From the NCBI GenBank assembly GCA_000004695.1, contig CM000154.2:384001-448000 (forward strand): 64,000 bases of DNA. Reading direction: 5' to 3'. A program made the translations under genes and the position numbers. The first letter of the stretch is position 1; each line of letters begins with the position of its first letter. Origin of the DNA: Dictyostelium discoideum (taxonomy: Eukaryota). Below the pieces are notes generated by a model, which made no database searches, had not been told where the DNA came from, and saw only the letters and a list, made by a program, of their open reading frames with translations. Shown in pieces: positions 25,584 through 49,922 of this stretch.

Positions 25584-25654
25584 TGCGTATGCTGGGAATC
25601 GAACCCAGTTCGCATCCGTGGCAGGGATGCATCATACCACTAGACCACATACGC
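25584..25654 (-). tRNA. tRNA-Gly (anticodon GCC)
   Basis: Reverse complement GCGTATGTGGTCTAGTGGTATGATGCATCCCTGCCACGGATGCGAACTGGGTTCGATTCCCAGCATACGCA folds as a cloverleaf. 7-bp acceptor stem GCGTATG/CATACGC. Anticodon stem CATCC/GGATG with loop CTGCCAC (GCC). T-arm GGGTTCGATTCCC. Confidence 0.85.
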
Positions 25655-29119: not shown

Positions 29120-29120
29120 N
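29046..29120. repeat. (A)73 homopolymer containing one N, in the convergent 3' intergenic region between cdo and the alpha-mannosidase gene
   Basis: A run from 29047 to 29119 with an n at 29120. Directly observed. Confidence 0.9.
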
Positions 29121-36290: not shown

Positions 36291-37614
36291 TTATGGAATT
36301 GTAATTTTTGATTCATCAATATGATGACTATGAATTTGTTGTTTAGAATCTGAAACTCTCATCATTCTTGGTTTAAGGAAAGAATATTCTAGTGATACAT
36401 CAGTATCAATATCCAATTCATCAGCACAATGTAATGGCCAGAATGGGTCCCTTAAGAAAGCACGTGCCATCATAACAATATCACATTTATTGGTTTCTAA
36501 AATACTATCAGCTTCATTTGGTTTATTAATTAAACCAACGGCAGCAGTTTTTAAATTTGTATTTCTCTTTATTTGTTCTGCAAATTTAACTTGGTATAAT
36601 GGACCACCTTGAATTTTTTGATCAATTGAATTACCACCAGATGAGCAGTCAAGAATATCCTGTATATAATTATTAAAATTATTATTATTATTAGAATATA
36701 TATGTGATATAGTTAATTTATTGGAAAAACTTACAACACCAAGAGATTCAAGAATTTTAGCTAAACGAACAGTATCTTCTATATGCCAACCATCTTTCAC
36801 CCATTCTTCACAAGATAATCTTACTGATAATGGTTTTGACATTGGCCAAACGGTACGGACAGCTTTAACAATATCAATTAAGAATTTAATACGACCATTA
36901 AAATCACCACCATATTGATCGGTACGTTTATTTGAAGTTGGTGAAAGGAATGATGAAATTAAATAACCATGAGCACCATGAATTTCAATCATATCGAAAC
37001 CAATTTTTAAACATCTTTCAGCTGATTCCCTAAATTGATTAATAACAATATTGATATCATCTAATGTCATTTCTTTTGGCACTGTTGAACCTGGACCCCA
37101 TGAAATATCAGATGGTCCAATTGGTAACCATCCATGTCCATTTGTATCATCAATTGGAATACTTTCATTTCTTTTTCCTAAAAATGGTGGATGAGTTGAT
37201 GCTTTACGACCTGCATGAGCAATTTGAATTGATGTTTTCTATTTAAAATAATAAAAAAAAAAAATAAATAATTATTAGTTTTTAATTAATTAAATAAATA
37301 AAATAAAAAAAAAAAATAAAAAAAAAAAATATAAACATACACAATCAAATTGACGAATGAAATTAACAATTCTTTTTAATGGTTCCATTTGTTCATCTTT
37401 CCATAATCCTGCATCTGCATACGTAATTCTACCGATATCACTTACTGCAGTGGCCTCCATAACAATCATAGAGGCACCACCCCTTGCAAATGTACCATAA
37501 TGCACTAAATGGTAATCACTCATAAATCCATCAATACTAAAATATTTAATATTATTTTTTATTTTTATTTTAAAAAAATAAAAAAATAATTATAGATTAA
37601 TAAAAAGAAATTAT

Positions 37615-37645
<31 letters not shown>

Positions 37646-37842
37646 TTTAAAATTATACTTTACCTACTATATTGACACATTGGACTAACAACAATTCTAT
37701 TTTTTAATGTTAAATCTTTAACTGTTAATGGAGTGAAAATTTTTGGAGTTGATTGTGTAAGTTCAACTGGTTTACCAGAACTTCCATAATGTTTTGGTAA
37801 AGCATATGGATAAATAAATTCTTTAATCATATGTTGTTGCAT
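36291..37842 (-). CDS. NADH:flavin oxidoreductase, Old Yellow Enzyme family (YqjM-like), four exons: complement(join(36291..36659,36735..37238,37341..37536,37664..37842)), about 415 aa.
   Basis: Exon 1 ...[23 protein letters not shown]. Exon 2 [32 protein letters not shown]...IRQFDC. Exon 3a [14 protein letters not shown]...[25 protein letters not shown]...[10 protein letters not shown]. Exon 3b [11 protein letters not shown]...FLRDPFW. Donors GTAAAG, GTATGT, GTAAGT. A 75-nt in-frame intron (36660-36734, GTAAGT...atatacAG) is read through by the track ORF, but the OYE alignment (ELGVDLIDVSSGG) requires its removal. Confidence 0.8.
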
Positions 37843-38253: not shown

Positions 38254-39245
38254 TTATTTTTTTAATGATAATTTCTTTTCAATTTCTTTAATTACTGAGA
38301 GAGCACAATCAGTGATTCTACTACCAGGACCAAAGATTGCAACTACACCATGTTGATAAAGGAAATCATAATCTTGAGGTGGAATAACACCACCACAAAT
38401 TACAGAGATATGAGAGGCATCCAATTTCTTTAATTCATCGATTAACTCTGGTACAAGTGTTTTATGACCAGCGGCTAAAGAGCTAACACCAACAACGTGG
38501 ACATCACTTTCAACGGCACTTTTAGCGACTTCTTTAGCGGTGGAAAAGAGTGGAGATATATCGACATCGAAACCCAAATCAGAGAAGCCAGAAGCAACCA
38601 CTTTAGCACCACGATCGTGGCCGTCTTGACCCATTTTGGCAACTAAAATTCTTGGTGGACGACCTTGTTCTTTTGTGAATTTTTTAACGGCATCAATGAC
38701 GGCATCGATTTCATTAGTTTTGCCATAGGCTGATTTGTAAGCACCACTAGCCAAAGAATGAGTTGGAACATAACGACCATAAACAACCTCCAAAGCATCA
38801 GAGATTTCACCAACGGTACAACGAGCACGAGCAGCATTGATTGACAATTCCAAGAGATTACCTTTACCAGTTTTAGCGGCTTCGGTGAGGGCTTCAAGAC
38901 ATTTCTTTGCCTCTTCAGAGTTACGAGTTGCCTTGATTCTCTTGAGACGTTCGATTTGAGCCTCTTTAACTTTTTTATTATCGATTGAAAGAATATCTAA
39001 TTTCTCCTCCTCTTTTAATTTATATTTATTTACACCAACGATAGTTTCGATGCCACTATCGATACGAGCTTGACGACTTGCAGCCGATTCTTCGATTCTA
39101 CGTTTTGGTAAACCCTCGGTGACAGCTTTAGCCATACCACCCATTTTTTCAACTTCTTCAATGATCTCCAAAGCTATGTAATCACGAAAATACCCAAAAA
39201 TATTACCAAACTTTGTCCATAAACCTAAAAAACAGATATTTTTTT
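38254..39245 (-). pseudogene. Methylmalonyl-CoA mutase, C-terminal half only (linker plus cobalamin-binding domain). Lone 3' exon with intact acceptor; N-terminal catalytic (beta/alpha)8 domain absent from the window neighbourhood.
   Basis: ...[69 protein letters not shown]...[76 protein letters not shown]...[30 protein letters not shown] is collinear with human MUT residues about 425-750, including the B12-binding DxHxxG motif. The frame opens only at ttttttAG (plus about 39246) with no in-frame ATG before it. No coding for the approx. 420-aa N-terminal domain exists on this strand anywhere between 39.2 and 44.3 kb. Confidence 0.65.
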
Positions 39246-40019
39246 TTTATCTATTTTTAAAAAAAGATATACCTTTTTTTTTTAATTAAAAAAAATGTTT
39301 AGAAAAAAAAAAAAAAAAAAATTAAAAACCGAGATAATTTCTGTGATTCTCGAAAAAAATAATAAAAATAATAATACAAAAAGAAACTTCATGGAAAAAA
39401 AAGAAAAAAGAAAAAAGAAAATCTAATATCCTACACACGACAGTTCATAATTATAGTGCAATTGCAAAATAAAAAAATCGGTTAGGGGTGGATAATTAAA
39501 TAATCAAAAAAAAAAACAATTTTTAAAAAAAAAAATAAAAAAATTAAAAATTCGTGTGTGTAACTGACAACAAATCATTCTTAAAAAAAAAATAAAAAAT
39601 AAAAAATATCATTGCATGTGAATATGATAACTAAAAAAAAAAAACTTCCTTAATTAAAAATAAAAAAAAAACTCAAAGTCATTTAATTAATAATCATCTC
39701 AAATATAAACAAAATTTTAGTACTAAAATTATTATTATTATTATTTTTATTATAATAATTATAATAATAAAAAAAAAAAAAAAAAAAATTTTCATATTAT
39801 TTTATTTATATCTTTTATTTATTTTTATCTTTTTATTTTTATTATTAATTTTATAATTTATTTTCATTTCTTTTTTTTTTAGTTGATATATATTTTTTTA
39901 TTATTCATTTATGTCTACGGCTCACAAAAAAAAAAATTAAAAATAAAAAAAAAAATTAAAAATTAAAAAAAAAAAAAAAAAAAAAAATTAAAATAATTTT
40001 TTTTTTTTAATTTTTTATT

Positions 40020-40440
40020 TTAATTATTGACTCTTCTACTTTCTCTTTTGTTACTAACAGATGAAGTTTCGTTTGAAAATCTTTTGGTAAAATCAGCATC
40101 AGATTGTAATTGATTAGCTCTTTTTTTACCCGTTTTGTTTTTGTTTGATTGAGTTGTGATTCCACCATTATTGGAAGTTGTTGCAGCTTCATGTGTTGAT
40201 CTAACTTCGGTGGTAGAGTGCTCGATTGCTTTTTCAACTAGGTCATCTGTTGATTTTCTTTTGGTTATTTCGATATCCCTTTGCAATTTATTTTACTTGT
40301 CTCCGCCTCTCTAAATTCAACATTTACTTTGTACTTCAAATCATTTTTATCAATAGTAACTTCGTTAAATAATACACCAAATTCATCACTTTGATTGAAT
40401 TCAACATCTTTAAATTCCAAAAAAGCGACATCTTCGGGTG
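40020..40440 (-). CDS. Small hypothetical acidic/basic protein (about 153 aa if two homopolymer indels are corrected)
   Basis: The ATG frame (MSLFW...) switches at T6 (about 40423) into EDVAFLEFKDVEFNQSDEFGVLFNEVTIDKNDLKYKVNVEFREAETSK, then at A4 (about 40275) into ...QRDIEITKRKSTDDLVEKAIEHSTTEVRSTHEAATTSNNGGITTQSNKNKTGKKRANQLQSDADFTKRFSNETSSVSNKRESRRVNN*. Adding one T and one A gives a single clean ORF. GC content higher than the flanks. Family not recognised. Confidence 0.3.
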
Positions 40441-40605
40441 GAAAAATAAAAAAATAAAAAAAAAAAATACTTTTTAATTTTTTTAATTTTTTTTTTATAT
40501 TTTTTTTTTTAATTTTTTTTTTTTATTTTATTTTTTAAAGTTTCGAACAATTATATATAAAAAAAAAGTAAAAGATATCCCTTCGGTCAATTAAATAATA
40601 GTAAT

Positions 40606-40606
<1 letters not shown>

Positions 40607-40649
<43 letters not shown>

Positions 40650-40651
40650 TA

Positions 40652-40744
<93 letters not shown>
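40607..40744. repeat. (AAT)n microsatellite, about 46 units, intergenic
   Basis: Directly observed perfect trinucleotide array with one internal variant (aacaataatataataat). Confidence 0.95.
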
Positions 40745-40745
<1 letters not shown>

Positions 40746-41132
40746 CTTAAATATACAAAAAAAAAATAAAAAAATAAAAAAATAAAAAAAATAAAAAAAA
40801 AAAAATAGAATGAAATGAAATAAAATAAAATAAAAAAAAGAAATACAGAATTTCTTTAAAGAAACTTATTTCGAAATTGTTTAAACAATCATACAGTTTA
40901 AAATTAAATAAATTGTTTTAAACCACCACTTTTTTTGAACACATGAAAATAAATAAGAAATAAAAATAAAAAGATAAAAAAAGATTTTTTTTTTTTTTTT
41001 ATTTTATAATTATTCTTGTCATCAGTATTGTTACTGTAATTAATCCCATGAGTTTTTTTTTATTATTTTTAATTCTTTTATATTTGAGATGATTATTAAT
41101 TAAATGACTTTGAGTTTTTTTTTTATTTTTCT

Positions 41133-41311
41133 ATGCCCAAAATTACCATATTAATTTCGGCAGCCATATTAATTTCAGCCTAAAATAGTTGGTCTGTGCA
41201 TGCCAAAATTAATATGGCTGCTGAAATTAATGTGGTAATTCTAGCAGACATAAGTCCCATGCCAAAATTACCATATTAATTTCAGCAGCCATATTAATTT
41301 TGGCATGGGAC
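41133..41311. repeat. MITE-like composite inverted/direct repeat element, about 180 bp (thug-S-like candidate)
   Basis: R1 cccaaaattaccatattaatttcggcagccatattaatttcagc (41138-41179). R2 gccaaaattaatatggctgctgaaattaatgtggtaattc (41201-41240) is the near-perfect reverse complement of R1. R3 gccaaaattaccatattaatttcagcagccatattaattttggc (41264-41305) is a direct copy of R1 whose own ends are palindromic (gccaaaatta/taattttggc). Outer ends atgcccaaaatt...aattttggcatgggac form short terminal inverted repeats. GC content well above the flanking poly-A/T DNA. Confidence 0.35.
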
Positions 41312-41798
41312 AATTGATGAAAAAAAAAAAAAAAAAAACAGAACTTCAAAAATATTTAAATCAAAGCAAAAAATAAATAATAATAAAAAAAAAAATTTGT
41401 TATAAAAATATGATTAAATTTCAAAAAATAATGATAATAAAAAAAAAATTAAAGAGAAACTCATATATAAAACAGATTCAAATTATCGAATAAACTTTTT
41501 TTTAAATTAAAAATAAAAATAAACATAATCTTTTATTTGCTTAAAAAAATAATATAAAAAAAAAAAAAAAAATAATTATTAAATAAAAAAAAGAATGGTT
41601 TTTTAAATGTCTTTATTTTCACTTTTTTATTTTTTTTATTTTATTATTTATTTTATTTTATTTTATTTTATTATTTATTTTATTATTTAATTTATTATTT
41701 ATTTTATTTCATTCCATTTCATTTCATTTTAATTTATTTTTATTTCTTTTTTTAAAATTTGATTCAAGTGAATTATCTTTGGAATGATTGAAGTCCTG

Positions 41799-41839
<41 letters not shown>

Positions 41840-41913
41840 AAAAAAAAAAAGAACTGAAAAATCAGATTTTTTTATTTATATTTTGTGAAACTGCAATTTT
41901 AAAATCTAAATTC

Positions 41914-41954
<41 letters not shown>

Positions 41955-42002
41955 GTGCAGAAGCGATAAAAAAAAAAAATAAAAAAAAAATAATATCCCC
42001 AT

Positions 42003-42033
<31 letters not shown>

Positions 42034-42869
42034 AGTAATTTTGGTTGAAATATTTAAAAAATTTTAGATATTTTTATTTTGGTTGGAAAAATAGAAAAAA
42101 AAAAAAATTATTTAAAACTCATTGTGCAACAACTATTTTAATCAAGATCCATCTCCCCAAATTATCGACAATTTCTTTTCTTTTCTTTTTTTATCGTAAA
42201 TTTTTTTTTAAAAATAGCAACATATTTTTTATAAAAAAAAAAAAGAAAAAAAAAAAGAAAAATAAATACCAAACTTTTTCTTAATTCCCAAGGCTTTATT
42301 TTTGCCTAAATCATTTGTTTTATAATATTTGCAGGCCAGTCCAACTGACCAATGAAATTAAAATATTTTTTCTGAAAATATGATTAGATTTCTAAAAAAA
42401 AAAAAAATGTTTAAAAATTGTTTGTTCACTTTCAAAATAAAATCTTTTTCAACCACGTTTTTTATTTTATTTAATTTTTTTTTTATAAACAAAATTTTCT
42501 CCAATTCTCAAGAACAATGTGGTTGTGATTGGATATTTTCCACCCAAATGCATGATGGCTTTCTGAAAGTCTTGCATATTTATAAAAAACAGACAAAAAT
42601 TTGGGTTAAAATTTGAGCAAATTAGAATTTCAAATAATAAAATAGAGCCAATAAAAAAATAGTATGGCGTCTATAGAAGCCCTCAAAATATGTGGACATA
42701 CCAAAAAGGGAAATTTTTTACTATAGAAAATAATTAATTTTAATTTTTTGTAAAATTTTTTTGTATAAAAATAATTTTTTTTTTTTTTTTTTTTTTTCAT
42801 TCCAAATTAAACTCAAGTATTTAAATAAATCAAATAAATCAAATAAATCAAATAAAAAATCAATTTAAA

Positions 42870-43091
42870 ATGAATCAAGTAAATAAAAAAAATAAAAAAA
42901 AATTATTTTCCAAACATTTTTATTTTTTTTTAAAATACTAATCACAATAATATTTTTTTTTTTTCTTTTTTTTTTTTCTCTTTTTTAAATTATAGAACTA
43001 TAGCACCAACACCACCATCAACAACAGCACTGAGGATCTCCACAACAATGACAATACTCACAACAATGAGAGTACCTACAATGAAGATGCC

Positions 43092-43180
<89 letters not shown>

Positions 43181-43627
43181 CGACGACGACAATCAAAACA
43201 ATAATTGCACAATGTGTCTTTCAGATAAAATGTGCTTTTCCTGTAAGATTATGAAAATTAGGCACGAAGCAGCTATCAAAATTTTTTATAATAGTTTAGG
43301 CTTAAGTCCGCCCCCTGCTGCCAATACTGGTTTTGCTAATGGTGGCACTGGCGTTGCCGATGACCATCCTGATGTTGAAAATTCCTCTGATATTTTTTAA
43401 ACGAATCGGCTGGTGTTGATAATCAACCCTCTACTGCCAATGAATATGATGATGATGATAGTTTCGATGGTGAATCCTATGTCTCTTTATCTGAATATGA
43501 TTCAGAAGATAGAAGGATGTTCATAGCCCAAGATGCTGAATATTATGCCAATGCTCCTTTTGAAGATCTACGAGGTGAGACCATTCATAAATGTCTTTTT
43601 AACCTTGATTCATATTTTGATTATTAT

Positions 43628-43685
<58 letters not shown>

Positions 43686-43786
43686 GAACTACCACTACAA
43701 CTACCACTACAACTACAACTTCATCGTCCAATAATTATAATAATAGTGATAGTGATAATGATGATGATGATATTAACAATAATTAA
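42870..43786 (+). CDS. Hypothetical Asn/Asp/Thr-rich protein with a Cys cluster (CTMCLSDKMCFSCKIM), two exons: join(42870..42878,42996..43786), with a frame break at the T6 run 43393-43398.
   Basis: 3-codon first exon ATGAATCAA followed by GTAAAT (42879). 117-bp intron. Acceptor ttaaattatAG (42994-42995). Exon 2 opens in frame 0 (NYSTNTTINNSTEDLHNNDNTHNNESTYNEDA(N)n...DHPDVENSSDIF). Frame 0 stops at 43398-43400 while frame 2 opens at 43391. Reading T7 instead of T6 makes one continuous ORF through ...FLNESAGVDNQPSTANEYDDDDSFDGESYVSLSEYDSEDRRMFIAQDAEYYANAPFEDLRGETIHKCLFNLDSYFDYYY(N)n(T)n...DDDDINNN*. Confidence 0.45.
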
Positions 43787-44198
43787 TATTATCCATAGTT
43801 GGAATAATAGTTTTAATGTAATTGATACCAAGATTGGTGGAAAGACTAATTGCCGATGAACTTTTCCAATCATCCTTTTTACACATAAAGAAAACTACTG
43901 GTTAAAAATTAATTTTAAAAAAAAAAAAAAATAAAAAAAAAATAAATAAATAAAAAAAAAATTAACTATAGAATTTTTTAAACATTTTGTTTTTATGATT
44001 TATTTATATTTATTTATTTTCAAAGTAATAATAATAATAATAATAATATTAAATAAATAAATGACATCTAATAAAAATATATAGGTATATCGAATATAAC
44101 TTTTCAATTTGTCACATTAATTTTGATCGTTTTTTATTTTTTTTTTTCCCACTTTTTTATTTTTTTTTTTTTTTATTTTTTCATTTTTATTTTTTAAA

Positions 44199-44233
<35 letters not shown>

Positions 44234-44286
44234 ATAATAATAATAATAACATTTTTTTTTAATTTAAAATTGTTTATTTTATAATT

Positions 44287-44482
44287 TTATTTACAAAAAA
44301 TTCCAATTGATAAAGATACACATAAAATAAAACTTAATTTTGCAGTTTTTAAGTCCCAATGTTTATAATTTCCATTTTTTGTATCCTTAAAAATATTATA
44401 TAAAGAGGTAATTGTGATTATAGTTGGTAAATTTAAATAAATATTATTATAAATAATTGATAATATAAATAAATAAAAATAA

Positions 44483-44527
<45 letters not shown>

Positions 44528-45322
44528 GACAAGAAATTCCCAATTAGTTTTTTTTTTTTTATTTTTTTTTTTTTATAATTAAATATATACATACAAAAAA
44601 TAAATTGAAAAATAAATTGAATATGATAAATTTTCACCTATTATTATTGGAATTGTAATTATATTTGATATTTTATCATTTTTTAAATCTCTAATATTAT
44701 TGGAAAAGATAATGGTGCAACAAGAGATAGTTAAGATCATTGAATAATTAAAAATTTCATTAAAATAATCTTTAAATAATTGTATATTTTGAAAATAAAT
44801 TGGAAATGGAACAATTGAAAACAAATTGAAAGATGCACTAATTTCGCCCAATGCTCTATATTTAAATGATATTGGTGGAGCTGTATAGAAATGTGATATA
44901 AATGATATAGTAATTGTAATTGGTAAAACATGGTAAATGGTTTCATTGAATTGTAAATTACAATTAACTAATAAAGTAATCAATGAAATTAAAACACCCA
45001 AATAGGTAATTTTAATAAAAAATTCTATATCATTTAGTGTTATTTTAATTGAATTTTGAAATAATGTTCTATCAGCTGACGTTTCTTTTTTATCCAATCC
45101 ATTTATAAAATCATAATAGGTATTTACTAAATTTGAAATATTATTTAAAAAATATAATACTAAAAAACTTAAACAAAATCTAAAAATATTGAATCCATTA
45201 CCCAAATTTACTTCATTTTTTATGAAAAATGATAAACTTATTAAACTTCCTGATATAAGAAATGATGTTGACCAAATTCTTGTTGAATTAATATATTTAT
45301 AGATAAAATATGATAATTCCAT
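44287..45322 (-). CDS. UbiA-family prenyltransferase, UBIAD1/MenA-like (1,4-dihydroxy-2-naphthoate polyprenyltransferase), two exons: complement(join(44287..44485,44595..45322)), 308 aa.
   Basis: ...[34 protein letters not shown] matches UBIAD1 [30 protein letters not shown]. The track ORF ends LYVYI*, but a GTATGT donor (RC at 44589-44594), a 109-bp intron consisting largely of an approx. 34-nt A run, and an aaaaAG acceptor join in phase to ...IYFYLFILSIIYNNIYLNLPTIITITSLYNIFKDTKNGNYKHWDLKTAKLSFILCVSLSIGIFCK*. That tail aligns with the UBIAD1 C-terminus (LPLLTIPMAFSLE...[22 protein letters not shown]). Confidence 0.75.
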
Positions 45323-45536
45323 TTTAAAATAAAAAAAATAAATAAAAAAAAAAAAGAAAAAAAAAAAAGAAAAGATAATAAATAAATAAATAAAAAATAA
45401 ACTTTATAGTTTTTTTTTTTTTTTTTTTTTTTAAAAAAATAAAATATTTTTTTTTTTTTTTTAAAAAATTTCAATAATCCTTTAATTTAATTATGCCCAA
45501 TACAAAGGTTTTTGTTTAAAAACTGAAAAAAAAGGG

Positions 45537-45636
45537 NNNNNNNNNNNNNNNNNNNNNNNNNNNNNNNNNNNNNNNNNNNNNNNNNNNNNNNNNNNNNNNN
45601 NNNNNNNNNNNNNNNNNNNNNNNNNNNNNNNNNNNN
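45537..45636. other. Assembly gap (100 N)
   Basis: Run of n characters 45537-45636, about 215 bp upstream of the UBIAD1 start codon. Confidence 1.
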
Positions 45637-46173
45637 AAAAAAAAAACAAAAAAAAAAAATTTAAAAAAAAAAAAAAAAATTGTCCATAAATCTAAAAATT
45701 TCCAGCGGTGTTATTTTTTATTTTTTTTTTTTTACTTACATTGAATACACCATTGTGCACTAACCATAACTAAAACTCTTGATGTATTTCTAATTTTTGT
45801 ATAGGTTTCTTCTGATGATTGTGGTTCGTAGATTGTCATTTTTTAATAAAGGTATATATATGCAGTTATTTATATAGTTATAAATATATTTTTTTTTTTT
45901 TATAATAGTGGTATAATTTTAAAATTGTGTTTTTTTTTTTTTTTTTTTTTTTTTTTAGGTTTAATAATAAACTTAAATTTAATGTGCGTTGTGTGTGTTT
46001 TTTTTTTTTTTTTTTTTTATTTTTATTTTATTTTTTTTTTTTTTAATTTTGATATAAAATTAGATTTATTATTTTTTTTTTATTTTTTATTTTTAATTTT
46101 TATTTTATCTATTTATAAAATTGTATAAATTTGACTAAAAAAAAAAAATAAAATAAAAAAAAAATTGATTTAT

Positions 46174-46206
<33 letters not shown>

Positions 46207-46308
46207 ATAATAAAAAAATAATAAAAAAAAAAATTTAAAAAAATTTAATTTAAAAAAAAAAAAAATTGGGTTCTAAATTTGGTATTTTTACCGTACCCCA
46301 CCAATTTT

Positions 46309-46348
<40 letters not shown>

Positions 46349-46826
46349 CCCAGAACACCCCCCCCATCAAATTTTACACCTAAAAATAGATGAGTGTGTG
46401 AGTGTGTGTATGTTTGGGTTTATATGTACATATATATTTTTAACCAAAAGAAAAAAAATAATTCATTGAACACACCCAAATAAGATGATTATAATCAAAA
46501 AGTTAATTTTTTTTGCCAATAACATATAAACTTGGGGGTTGGGATTATATATATTGAATCAAATAACATTTATTTTTTTTTATTTTTTTTTTTTTCCAAC
46601 TCAAAACTAAATAATTAAATTCAAATAAAAAAAAATAAAAAAAAAAAAATAATATGATATATATGTCAAAAATTAATGTCAGATATACAAAAAAAATATA
46701 TATATTAATAAAAAATAAAAATAAAAATAAAAAAAAAATTAAAAAAAAAAATAAAGAAAAAAATTAATTTTTTGATATTTTACAATTATCAATTGTTTAT
46801 TTTTATTTTTTTCCTTTTAAAGGTTT

Positions 46827-46866
<40 letters not shown>

Positions 46867-48033
46867 CCCACACACCAATTCAAATAATTTTCCGTTAAAA
46901 GATATATTTAATAACCCTTCAATCACACTTCTTTTTTTTTTTAGCATTTTAAATTTAAAAAAAAAAAATCCTTCATTCATGAATAAAATGTAAATATGAT
47001 CGATTTCCAAAACATCTTCAAAAAATAAAAATAAAAATTATAAAAAAGAATAAAAATTATTAATTAAATAAAAATTAAAAAGAAGAAAAAAAAAAAGAAA
47101 TTAAAATAAAATAAAATTAAAAAAAATTAAAAAAAAAAAACAAATAAATAAAAATTTTTTATCATTTATTTTTATTTCTTTGAAATTTATTTTTATTTAA
47201 TAATTAATAAAAAAAAAAATTAAAAAAAAAATAAATAAATAAATAAAAATAAAAAAAAAAAAAAAAAAAAGTGTTTATAGTATTTCTTTTCTTTCTTTTT
47301 TTTTATTAAATTATGAATTGATTACAAATAAATTTTTATTAAATAATTTAAAGCATCATATTAATTGCTCTTTGTGGTTTTTGTCCAAAGTTTTTTTTTT
47401 TTAACACATCAAAAATAAAAAAAAATATTCATTGAATAGCCAATAAAAGGATATAAAATGTTAATTTTCAAAATATTTGGTTGATTATATAAACAAAAAA
47501 AAAAATGTATTCATACTGGTACTTTTTTCTATTTTTTTCACCTTTTTGAGCATGGCAATTTACAAAATCTAATATTAGAACGGTAATTGTTTTTTTAAAA
47601 AAAAAAAAAATAAAAAAAAAAGTTTTATTTGAAATGGGGTTATTTTTGTGATCAAAAAGGTATTCTCAAAATTTTGATTTTATTTTATTTTATTTTATTA
47701 TTTATTTTTTTTAAATTTTTTTTTTTTTTTTTTAAAATTTTATTATTTAGAATTAAAATGTTGTTTTTTCCAGAGCAATATTTTTTTTATTTTTTAATTT
47801 GAATTATCAAAATTTAATAAAGAATTTTAATTTTAAATAGTGCAGTTATTGTTATTTTTTTTTGTTTTAAAAAAATAAAATTAATAAATCTAATAATAAA
47901 ATTGTATAAATTAAATGGTTGAAGGAGGTTATCTTTAGAAGAACTGATTCTGAAGTACAATTCTAGTGTTTCTTACAATTAAAGAAGAGATAACCTCAGG
48001 ATCATTAAAATTCTAGTTTATAAATCCTTTTAG

Positions 48034-48051
48034 GACAGGAGTCGAACCTGT
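48034..48051 (-). promoter_or_regulatory. External B-box (ex-B) 27 nt downstream of tRNA-Leu
   Basis: Minus strand reads ACAGGTTCGACTCCTGTC, a near-consensus B-box (GGTTCGANTCC) with flanking inverted bases, immediately 3' of the tRNA. This is the typical Dictyostelium ex-B arrangement. Confidence 0.5.
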
Positions 48052-48077
48052 AGTCTTTGGTGGCTCAAATAAATTAT

Positions 48078-48159
48078 TGTAAGCTAAGGGATTCGAACCC
48101 TTGTATCAATGATATTGCAGCCTTAATGCAACCCCTTAGACCAGCTCGGGCAAGCTTAC
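48078..48159 (-). tRNA. tRNA-Leu (anticodon AAG), class II with long variable arm
   Basis: Reverse complement GTAAGCTTGCCCGAGCTGGTCTAAGGGGTTGCATTAAGGCTGCAATATCATTGATACAAGGGTTCGAATCCCTTAGCTTACA. Acceptor GTAAGCT/AGCTTAC. Anticodon stem TTGCA/TGCAA with loop TTAAGGC (AAG). 12-nt variable arm. T-arm AAGGGTTCGAATCCCTT. Confidence 0.85.
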
Positions 48160-48194
48160 TTTTTGAAAATTTTGTAATCTCTAACGATATTAAT

Positions 48195-48358
48195 TTATCA
48201 ATTACGGAAAAAAAACAAACAACAACAACAATCTCTTTTTTTGATTATTTCATTTTTCATATAAAAAAGACTTAAAAAACAAATAAATAAATAAATAAAC
48301 TATTTTAAAAAGCCATCTTTTTACTTTATTGTAATTTATTATTTGAAATAGAAAAAAT

Positions 48359-48409
<51 letters not shown>

Positions 48410-48701
48410 GGAACCCAAGTTAATCAGAAAATTTCCAGATTTTTAACTTTTTAAAGAAAAATAAAAAAAATAGAAAGAAAATAAAATGAAAATCACAAAC
48501 AACACCACAAATATTAAGCAACACAAATGCCTACAAAAAATAAGCGAAATTGTGGATAAAACTCAATTAAAAAAAAAACAATTCAAATACGTCATAAACA
48601 TCAATCACGAACCAGACGATAAAATAAAAAAAGATTTAGAAAAAAGTTTGGACAAAAAAGATGTTTTAATCAAAAGTAATAATACAATTCAAAATTCGAA
48701 A

Positions 48702-48743
<42 letters not shown>

Positions 48744-49130
48744 TAAACCAACCCCTCTTTTAGAGACCCTGTAAAAAAAAATAAAATAAAATAAAATGAG
48801 ATCTAGCATCTCAAGGAGAAGCAAATAATAATTGCGTTATCCAATTCAAAAAAAAAATAATTTATCAATTACTATGACCCTGTAAAAAAAAAATTATTAT
48901 TATTTATCCCTGTAAAAAAAAAAAAAATAAAATGAGATCTAGCATCTCAAGGAGAAGCAAATAATAATTGCGTTATCCAATTCAAAAAAAAAAAATTTAT
49001 CAATTACTAAAAAAACAACAACAACAATCTCTTTTTTTGATTATTTCATTTTTCATAAAAAAGACTTAAAAAACAAATAAATAAACTATTTTAAAAAGCC
49101 ATCTTTTTACTTATTGTAATCTATTATTTG
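48195..49130. repeat. Composite direct-repeat structure beginning about 35 bp upstream of tRNA-Leu. Unit A (48195-48345), then about 420 bp of unique sequence including a K-rich small ORF (48486-48746), then about 135-bp unit B twice in tandem (48762-48872 and 48910-49008), then A' (48997-49130), about 90% identical to A. Possible tRNA-targeted element remnant or local duplication.
   Basis: A: ttatcaattacggaaaaaaaacaaacaacaacaacaatctctttttttgattatttcatttttcatataaaaaagacttaaaaaacaaataaataaa...ctattttaaaaagccatctttttactttattgtaatttattatttg. A' is the same with small indels. B/B': ccctgtaaaaaaa...ataaaatgagatctagcatctcaaggagaagcaaataataattgcgttatccaattcaaaaaaaa..tttatcaattac. The 12-mer tttatcaattac marks each junction (48190, 48861, 48996). 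Confidence 0.5.
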
Positions 49131-49922
49131 TTTCGTTTTGAAAATTTTGCCTCGCACAATCTGTCATCTTAAATTTTAATCTAATGCAATTTATATTTAT
49201 ATTTTAATTTATCTTTTATATTTACATTTCAATTTTAATCTTTTTATTTAAATACACTTTTTTTTAATAAAAATTTTTTATTTGGAAATGTCAATTTAAA
49301 TAAACAAAAAAAAATTAATTTTCCAATTTTTAATTTCCAAAAATACAAATAACAAAATGTTAAATATAGTACAACTTTCAATCAATTAAAGGTTTATCCA
49401 TTTATATTTATTAATAAAAAAAAAAAAAAATTTTGTAATTTTAAAATAGTTTCATTTTCATGGACTTTTTTTTTTTTTTTATGTTCACAGACTATTAATT
49501 AAAATAAAAAAGTAAATTTATTCTTTTTTATTTTTTTTAAATTTATTTAATTTTTATTTTTATTTTATTTTTATTTGAATTGTTGAGTAACCAGGGTTAC
49601 CCCTTATTTGAAAAAAAAAAAATAAAATAAAAAAAATGAATTTTTTTATTTATTTAATTTATTTTTTTTCTTATTAAATTATCATTTTTCTCCCAATTTA
49701 GTAAAAAAAAAAAAAATTAAATAAAAAAAAAAAAATTAAATAAAAAAAAAAAAAATTAAATAAAAAAAAAAAAAAAAAAAATAAATAAAAAAAAAATCAA
49801 ATTAAAATTTTTTTATCTCCATTAATTTTATTCATTATTAATATTTTTCTTATCTTTTATTAAAAAACAAATAGAAAAAAAAAAAAAAAAAAAAAAAGTT
49901 TTTAAAGAAAAAAAATAAAAAA

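Follow-up and report, generated by a model that had tools for sequence, protein, structure and literature searches.

The 64,000-nucleotide stretch of Dictyostelium discoideum DNA analysed here (the window, ~21% G+C), which we take to be part of chromosome 5 of strain AX4, carries on its minus strand the 3' end of a gene for methylmalonyl-CoA mutase (MCM). AX4 keeps the final 41% of this gene (306 of 741 codons) without a defect, and we find that at the upstream end of the retained part the similarity to every intact allele compared stops in the middle of a coding exon, at a junction that is present in the laboratory strain AX2 as well. Truncation by rearrangement is supported by direct observation of the junction itself, of the intact state of the gene in relatives and of the near-identity of the fragment to an intact allele. 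What AX4 retains is very probably the remnant of a single-copy mitochondrial MCM gene, left behind by a recent structural mutation in the AX4/AX2 lineage.

The fragment retained in AX4

The window was searched by tblastn with human MUT, database proteins, the full-length protein of Conidiobolus coronatus (P0122) and that of wild D. discoideum (P0371); the database-protein queries reproduce the outcome of the human MUT query. Each query yields a single strong match, on the minus strand at 39174-38257 with E values from 1e-119 to 0, and the ranges matched are residues 442-740 of human MUT (61% identity), 438-736 of the C. coronatus protein (66%) and 436-741 of the wild D. discoideum protein (99.3%). 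The C-terminal open reading frame (ORF) at this position is 100% identical to XP_637192.1 (DDB_G0287563; UniProt Q54K63), a 296-amino-acid (aa) "hypothetical protein" in AX4. The elements of the locus on which the argument turns are the following:

36291..37842, minus strand: Old-yellow-enzyme-type (OYE) flavin oxidoreductase gene, directly downstream of the MCM fragment and the first conserved neighbour anchoring the locus
38254..39175, minus strand: 3' fragment of the MCM gene, codons 436-741 of the 741-aa wild-type enzyme plus the stop codon (38254-38256)
39144..39146, minus strand: first in-frame ATG, start of the 296-aa AX4 model DDB_G0287563 (MGGMAKAV...)
39175..39176, no strand assigned: rearrangement breakpoint, the last base common to all intact alleles and the first AX4/AX2-specific base, placed by blastn colinearity and base-level alignment
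39176..39249, minus strand: accidental in-frame ORF extension into unrelated DNA, 24 codons (39176-39246) and an in-frame stop (39247-39249)
39176..39655, no strand assigned: junction-proximal AX4/AX2-specific DNA, with no match in the fetched wild-type loci or elsewhere in the window

The fragment takes in the end of PF01642, the linker and the B12-binding domain in full, and has a G+C content of 39.6% against 18.5% directly upstream. In Pfam the AX4 product covers only profile positions 394-512 of the 512 of PF01642, whereas the wild protein spans positions 2-512. The B12-binding domain PF02310 is complete (residues 165-275 of the protein sequence P0001, E = 4e-20) and includes the motif GQDGHDRG (DxHxxG). 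Compared with human MUT (P22033) and with the 741-aa enzyme of wild D. discoideum (KAM9956112.1; EC 5.4.99.2, PF01642 + PF02310), the AX4 fragment thus shares the linker and the B12-binding domain with its cobalt-coordinating histidine motif intact, whereas residues 1-435 of these enzymes, with their presequence and N-terminal arm and the (beta/alpha)8 barrel that binds the substrate, are absent from it. A first-pass annotation of this DNA had described the C-terminus of MUT as perfectly encoded over about 325 residues; the coding region is indeed flawless, and the length of its homologous part has to be corrected to 306 codons. The same annotation reported that no ORF for the N-terminal barrel lies nearby, and this we can confirm, since at E<0.3 MCM residues 1-435 have no tblastn match on the plus or the minus strand anywhere in the 64-kb window. 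Nor is there a tblastn match to these residues at the AX2 locus. A pair of weak collinear high-scoring segment pairs (HSPs) at 48139-47944 was considered as a decayed N-terminal relic and rejected as chance, one of the two overlapping a tRNA-Leu(AAG) gene and the other lying just 3' of the tRNA.

Upstream of the homologous part, the 24 codons at 39176-39246 align with no part of any mutase compared. No mitochondrial presequence precedes the first ATG of the fragment and the wild-type N-terminus (MNLLRSTKK...) is absent, as judged from sequence comparison without a dedicated targeting predictor. Lacking both barrel and presequence, the predicted product cannot, as far as its sequence allows us to judge, enter mitochondria, act as a mutase there or bind the acyl-CoA substrate.

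The intact gene in relatives and the breakpoint

To recover the ancestral state, synteny was anchored on PNO1, a conserved single-copy neighbour 3 kb downstream of the fragment, and the loci around wild MCM genes were then fetched. Seven assembled genomes were compared, two of wild D. discoideum (GCA_054859385.1 and GCA_054859355.1, presumably CR116C and OT3A), two of D. cf. discoideum, and those of D. citrinum, D. dimigraforme and D. firmibasis. The gene order CDO - alpha-mannosidase - PNO1 - Band_7 - OYE is the same in the window and in all seven, and after OYE each of the seven has a complete MCM gene (728-741 aa), followed by genes for an alpha/beta-hydrolase and a Meth_synt_2-like protein and by a gene of ~3230 aa. 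An eighth intact allele is found on 2.3-kb contigs without flanking context (L009-L011, from the runs SRR26869256, SRR26869257 and SRR28564542); these contigs are genomic, starting within the intron and carrying the intact exon, and a 704-aa protein was called on the Logan contigs. A search with the C-terminal protein, in which AX4 scored 100% and the rest at most 66%, had given the impression that no other dictyostelid has the gene; this was wrong, as full-length Dictyostelium MCMs exist in the 90% cluster. The expectation of the first-pass annotation that the organism should possess the full enzyme is therefore correct for the species, whose wild isolates have full MCM.

In the ancestral gene a 36-nt exon 1 (12 codons, MNLLRSTKK...) is separated by an intron of 83-169 nt from a single 2.19-kb exon that runs to the stop codon. 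The wild-type presequence is encoded by exon 1 and the beginning of exon 2, and the intron after codon 12 is the only one in the relatives' genes, none being found near codon 435. The 306 residues retained in AX4 share 99.3-99.7% identity with the enzymes of wild D. discoideum, and across species the ratio of nonsynonymous to synonymous substitution rates (dN/dS) of this region is 0.015-0.046, from which it follows that MCM is a constrained, working enzyme in the genus.

Several further observations concern these intact loci. In the 728-aa model of GCA_054859385.1 (L002 14413-16768) the acceptor lies 42 nt further downstream than in the 740-741-aa models, so that 14 codons are skipped (LVNNNNNNKIIIKR), which is likely an annotation difference and not biology. 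The Meth_synt_2-like neighbour shows 5 residue differences between the two wild isolates. The linkage MCM-OYE-Band_7-PNO1 occurs in D. discoideum, D. cf. discoideum, D. citrinum, D. dimigraforme and D. firmibasis, and not in D. purpureum, whose PNO1 locus (L005, GL871040.1, with genes for PEP carboxylase, a response-regulator protein and a P450) shares no genes with that of the D. discoideum clade; D. purpureum does have an MCM homologue (PMC8085122 Table S2).

In every comparison with an intact locus (L002, L003, L004, L012, L013 and L009-L011) blastn colinearity ends at 39175 or 39174, and the contigs L009-L011 align to the window from 39175 downwards only. At the base level the relatives read GAATTGGAGAAGAA followed by AGCTTTGGAGATCATT, whereas AX4 reads TTTCGTGATTACAT followed by the same AGCTTTGGAGATCATT. 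The junction falls between codons 435 and 436, inside the large coding exon, with a microhomology of at most 1-2 nt. Upstream of the corresponding point the wild isolates have an 11.4-kb stretch with the 5' half of MCM, the genes for the hydrolase and the Meth_synt_2-like protein and the beginning of the large gene. Neither blastn nor tblastx matches this stretch to any part of the window; the locus lacks at least 11.4 kb of its ancestral upstream DNA. Conversely, comparison of AX4 DNA at 39176-49300 with all fetched wild loci returned just low-complexity and TRE-type retroelement matches.

These results change how the upstream end of the fragment must be read. The first-pass annotation had it begin exactly at a good 3' splice site and had called it an internal exon as opposed to a relic. 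Homology starts at 39175, and the putative acceptor (tttttAG, at 39225/39226) sits within the non-homologous stretch 50 nt further upstream; the ancestral gene has no intron there, and colinearity with the eight intact alleles ends in the middle of an exon. A perfect ORF beside an AG dinucleotide is thus no evidence of an exon. A giant intron, another of the explanations offered at that time, is excluded for the 24.8 kb upstream and is also unnecessary. Truncation, which stood in the same list, is the explanation that the alignments bear out, with colinearity to all eight intact alleles stopping at 39175/39176 inside the coding exon.

The same junction is found in a second laboratory strain. 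Ten de novo Nanopore+Illumina Dictyostelium assemblies have been described, including one of the laboratory strain AX2-214 with an N50 of 5.3 Mb (PMC12745789), and GCA_054883475.1, which encodes KAM9946868.1, the second member of the AX4 protein's 90% cluster, appears to be the AX2-214 assembly (AX2 in what follows). Its locus (L001) is collinear with window positions 49217-28188 at 98.6-99.4% identity, in two HSPs parted only by a gap in AX4, and the HSP that crosses the junction is unbroken (L001 3941-20336 against window 45536-29072, 99.4%). The AX4 gap (45537-45636, 100 N, 6.4 kb from the junction) is closed in AX2 by 391 bp (L001 3550-3940), which lie in a 106-aa thioredoxin gene that the gap interrupts and contain no MCM sequence; a single N also stands at window position 29120. 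At all 921 coding positions of the fragment AX2 is identical to AX4.

The AX2 annotation represents the remnant differently. Its model KAM9946868.1 (ACTFIT_000187, 326 aa; L001 10001-11195, equivalent to window 38254 to ~39448) draws its extra residues from a 10-nt exon 1 (ATGAACTGTC) and a 210-nt intron, spliced to the AG at 39225/39226. Both this 10-nt exon and the internal-methionine start of the AX4 model are annotation artefacts of a truncated gene.

Age of the break and alternative explanations

Compared with the intact contigs L009-L011, the AX4 fragment shows 3 substitutions in 921 coding nt, all of them synonymous, with 0 amino-acid changes and a 5-nt indel in the 3' untranslated region. 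It has 0 stops and 0 frameshifts, and there is no sign of secondary disabling or relaxed constraint relative to this closest intact allele. Because that allele differs by only 3 synonymous bases and by no amino acid, we regard the truncation as very recent, and the flawless ORF would in turn be explained by this recency; that the break is very young is the simplest reading of the sequences. If the fragment had been unconstrained over half of the divergence, ~5 nonsynonymous changes would be expected and the probability of finding none would be 0.006, although polarisation with outgroups assigns no more than 1-3 substitutions to the AX4 branch and the test is accordingly weak. AX4 and AX2 were derived separately from isolate NC4, and the break, being common to both, was therefore probably already present in NC4. 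An exact look-up of the 305-aa TTG-start ORF, intended to find sequencing runs with the truncated allele, found no record.

We propose that a structural mutation, recent and in the ancestry common to AX4 and AX2, would have cut the large second exon after codon 435 and brought its last 921 nt next to unrelated DNA that contains repeats. The locus would thereby have lost exon 1 and the intron, all of the substrate-binding barrel, the mitochondrial presequence and at least three genes further upstream. The most that could still be made, starting at the first internal ATG, is a cytosolic polypeptide of 296 aa consisting of linker and B12 domain, and the fragment would look perfect as there has been too little time for decay. 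Loss of the enzyme function in AX4 and AX2 would be the probable consequence. There is nothing unusual about the gene family, and structural mutations of a strain lineage that leave a gene remnant are a well-known kind of event; AX4/AX2-specific rearrangements have already been documented (PMC12745789). Like the reciprocal translocation between chromosomes 3 and 6 of the AX4/AX2 lineage and the chromosome 2 duplication of AX4, the MCM break is a structural change of laboratory strains, in this case of both AX4 and AX2, that is absent from wild isolates and was detected with the same new assemblies (PMC12745789). It differs from both in lying on chromosome 5 and in disrupting a metabolic gene, and it is unmentioned in the main text of that study.

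The single-copy status of the gene can be judged from protein collections. There is no AX4 or AX2 member among the 8 in the 90%-identity cluster of full-length Dictyostelium MCMs, while the AX2 annotation comes from the same project as those of the wild isolates, and the PSI-BLAST-based list of MCMs in PMC8085122 contains a single AX4 accession, XP_637192.1. These negatives from cluster and survey argue, indirectly, against a second intact copy and more weakly against an annotated N-terminal half. A search with residues 1-438 of the C. coronatus protein was dominated by fungal and animal proteins at 73-89% and was unable to reveal a D. discoideum N-terminal fragment.

A number of considerations weigh against regarding the fragment as a dead remnant. 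The 5' half may survive elsewhere in the AX4 and AX2 genomes, the DNA-level search having covered the 64-kb window and ~21 kb of AX2. The protein homology search missed eight full-length Dictyostelium MCMs that are 99% identical, as well as AX4's own PNO1, and its negatives therefore carry little weight. In a 2026 preprint methylmalonyl-CoA mutase is among the D. discoideum genes down-regulated in a dstA knockout, and since it is thus listed as differentially expressed the remnant is probably transcribed. Furthermore, continued selection would likewise leave the fragment free of stops, frameshifts and amino-acid changes of its own; the probability of 0 nonsynonymous changes (0.006-0.03) applies only if the break is as old as the split, and 3 synonymous differences give little power.

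Such considerations lead to two readings in which the fragment still has a function, either as an orphan linker-plus-B12 domain retained as a cobalamin-binding protein or as one part of a newly born split mutase whose 5' half was relocated. Even taken together we hold them to be unlikely; if either were true, a eukaryotic gene fission or neofunctionalisation would have been caught within a few thousand generations of its origin. Under the first of them, which by itself is distinctly improbable, the remnant would be kept as a stand-alone protein, which might for example buffer or carry B12 in the cytosol or interact with B12 chaperones as a dominant-negative partner, and the perfect ORF would be the mark of selection. 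The complete B12-binding domain with its DxHxxG motif, the in-frame ATG, the likely transcription and the ratio of 0 nonsynonymous to 3 synonymous changes relative to the closest intact allele all fit such a role, yet the counts are too small to tell selection from recency, the more so with so few substitutions falling on the AX4 branch. The event is moreover limited to a single strain lineage, the full gene being present in eight other genomes, and nothing suggests a new promoter or targeting signal.

A recent gene fission has less in its favour still, and we consider it very improbable. It would require that an inversion or translocation carried the 5' half, with presequence and barrel, to another place and that both halves are expressed and reassemble into an active enzyme. 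The limited reach of the DNA-level search and the intact, probably transcribed state of the fragment leave room for it, and split mutases do exist as a precedent, the large and small subunits of archaeal MCM and the bacterial IcmA/IcmB being separately encoded mutase subunits. The likeness to these is that the B12-binding module is encoded apart from the barrel. Their cut, however, falls immediately ahead of the B12 domain, and neither gene is missing, the two being usually adjacent, whereas the break in AX4, after residue 435, lies ~170 residues earlier, inside PF01642 (position 394 of 512) and not at the boundary between the barrel with its linker and the B12 domain, which starts at about residue 610 of 741. 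No partner gene was found in the 64-kb window, at the AX2 locus or in the MCM cluster, neither that cluster nor the published survey contains an N-terminal protein of AX4 or AX2, and the truncated state occurs in a single lineage of laboratory strains. The fragment also has no presequence for mitochondrial import, and it is a priori improbable that a random break should yield two halves that are expressed, targeted and able to assemble. An assembly artefact, finally, can practically be discounted: the AX4 chromosome is an older assembly of draft quality with its 100-N gap not far away, and the junction adjoins repeats, yet the same junction stands base for base in the Sanger assembly and in an independent de novo Nanopore one, which is collinear through it and fills the gap with thioredoxin sequence instead of MCM, so that the chimeric join near 39.2 kb considered in the first-pass annotation is not credible. 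A remnant left by a recent structural mutation is the explanation we retain.

Upstream repeats and consequences for laboratory strains

The DNA beyond the junction contains repeated sequence, which was brought out by a dust-filtered self-BLAST that showed an inverted repeat and a palindrome, a general repeat scan having been dominated by low-complexity AT repeats. Together with two tRNA genes the features are:

39656..39716, no strand assigned: inverted repeat, left arm, 61 nt of which 54 nt are perfect (self-BLAST)
40020..40420, minus strand: small ORFs between the repeat arms, 88 and 51 aa; a 126-aa gene in the AX2 annotation; no Pfam match
41071..41130, no strand assigned: inverted repeat, right arm, directly adjoining the palindrome
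41133..41307, no strand assigned: near-perfect palindrome of 175 nt, MITE-like, with a match to mir-7131 (Rfam RF03716) on both strands in its core (41209-41297)
48078-48159, minus strand: tRNA-Leu(AAG), with a downstream external B-box-like element GGTTCGACTCC
25584-25654, minus strand: tRNA-Gly(GCC), a second tRNA gene

The 61-nt inverted repeat encloses 1.35 kb with the small ORFs and a long (AAT)n tract; its arms could be the ends of a DNA transposon or of a segment capable of inversion, and no further copy of it is present in the window or the fetched loci. The palindrome scores 93.8 and 93.1 bits against mir-7131 (gathering score 74; 41209-41297), and its hairpin, folded as DNA, reaches -52.9 kcal/mol (z = -12). 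The first-pass description of this region as holding a small unrelated gene and a MITE-like element is therefore sound. Multicopy miRNA loci of D. discoideum are embedded in the thug-S repeat (PMC6161686), and the palindrome is probably a copy of a thug-S-type repeat. It lies 2 kb from the breakpoint, and any causal role of this repeat family in the rearrangement would be a guess. At 48220-49110, directly upstream of the tRNA-Leu gene, there are duplicated segments of ~110 nt, together with 500 nt that share 84.5% identity with the flank of a reverse-transcriptase (RVT_1) gene in the wild-isolate locus L002, an arrangement typical of tRNA-targeted TRE retroelements.

In the literature searched we found no paper that recognises the MCM gene of the reference genome as a truncated allele. 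Comparative surveys of B12 usage count D. discoideum among the organisms that have MCM (PMC2667541, PMC3605638, PMC8085122), a count that rests on this fragment. In the part of the methylmalonyl-CoA epimerase tree of PMC8085122 that was covered, D. purpureum, T. lacteum and H. album are adjacent and D. discoideum is not seen, which may be no more than an effect of CD-HIT clustering or of the part covered.

Should the remnant be inactive, the laboratory strains in standard use would be natural MCM-null mutants, unable to feed propionyl-CoA derived from odd-chain fatty acids and branched-chain amino acids into the TCA cycle via the B12 route. AX2 and AX4 serve almost all Dictyostelium genetics, and AX4 provides the reference genome. 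Results obtained with the laboratory strains on the B12 requirement, on the toxicity of propionate- and valproate-type fatty acids and on host lipid metabolism in mycobacterial infection may in that case misrepresent the species, and laboratory strain and wild allele would offer a ready isogenic comparison for modelling methylmalonic acidaemia.

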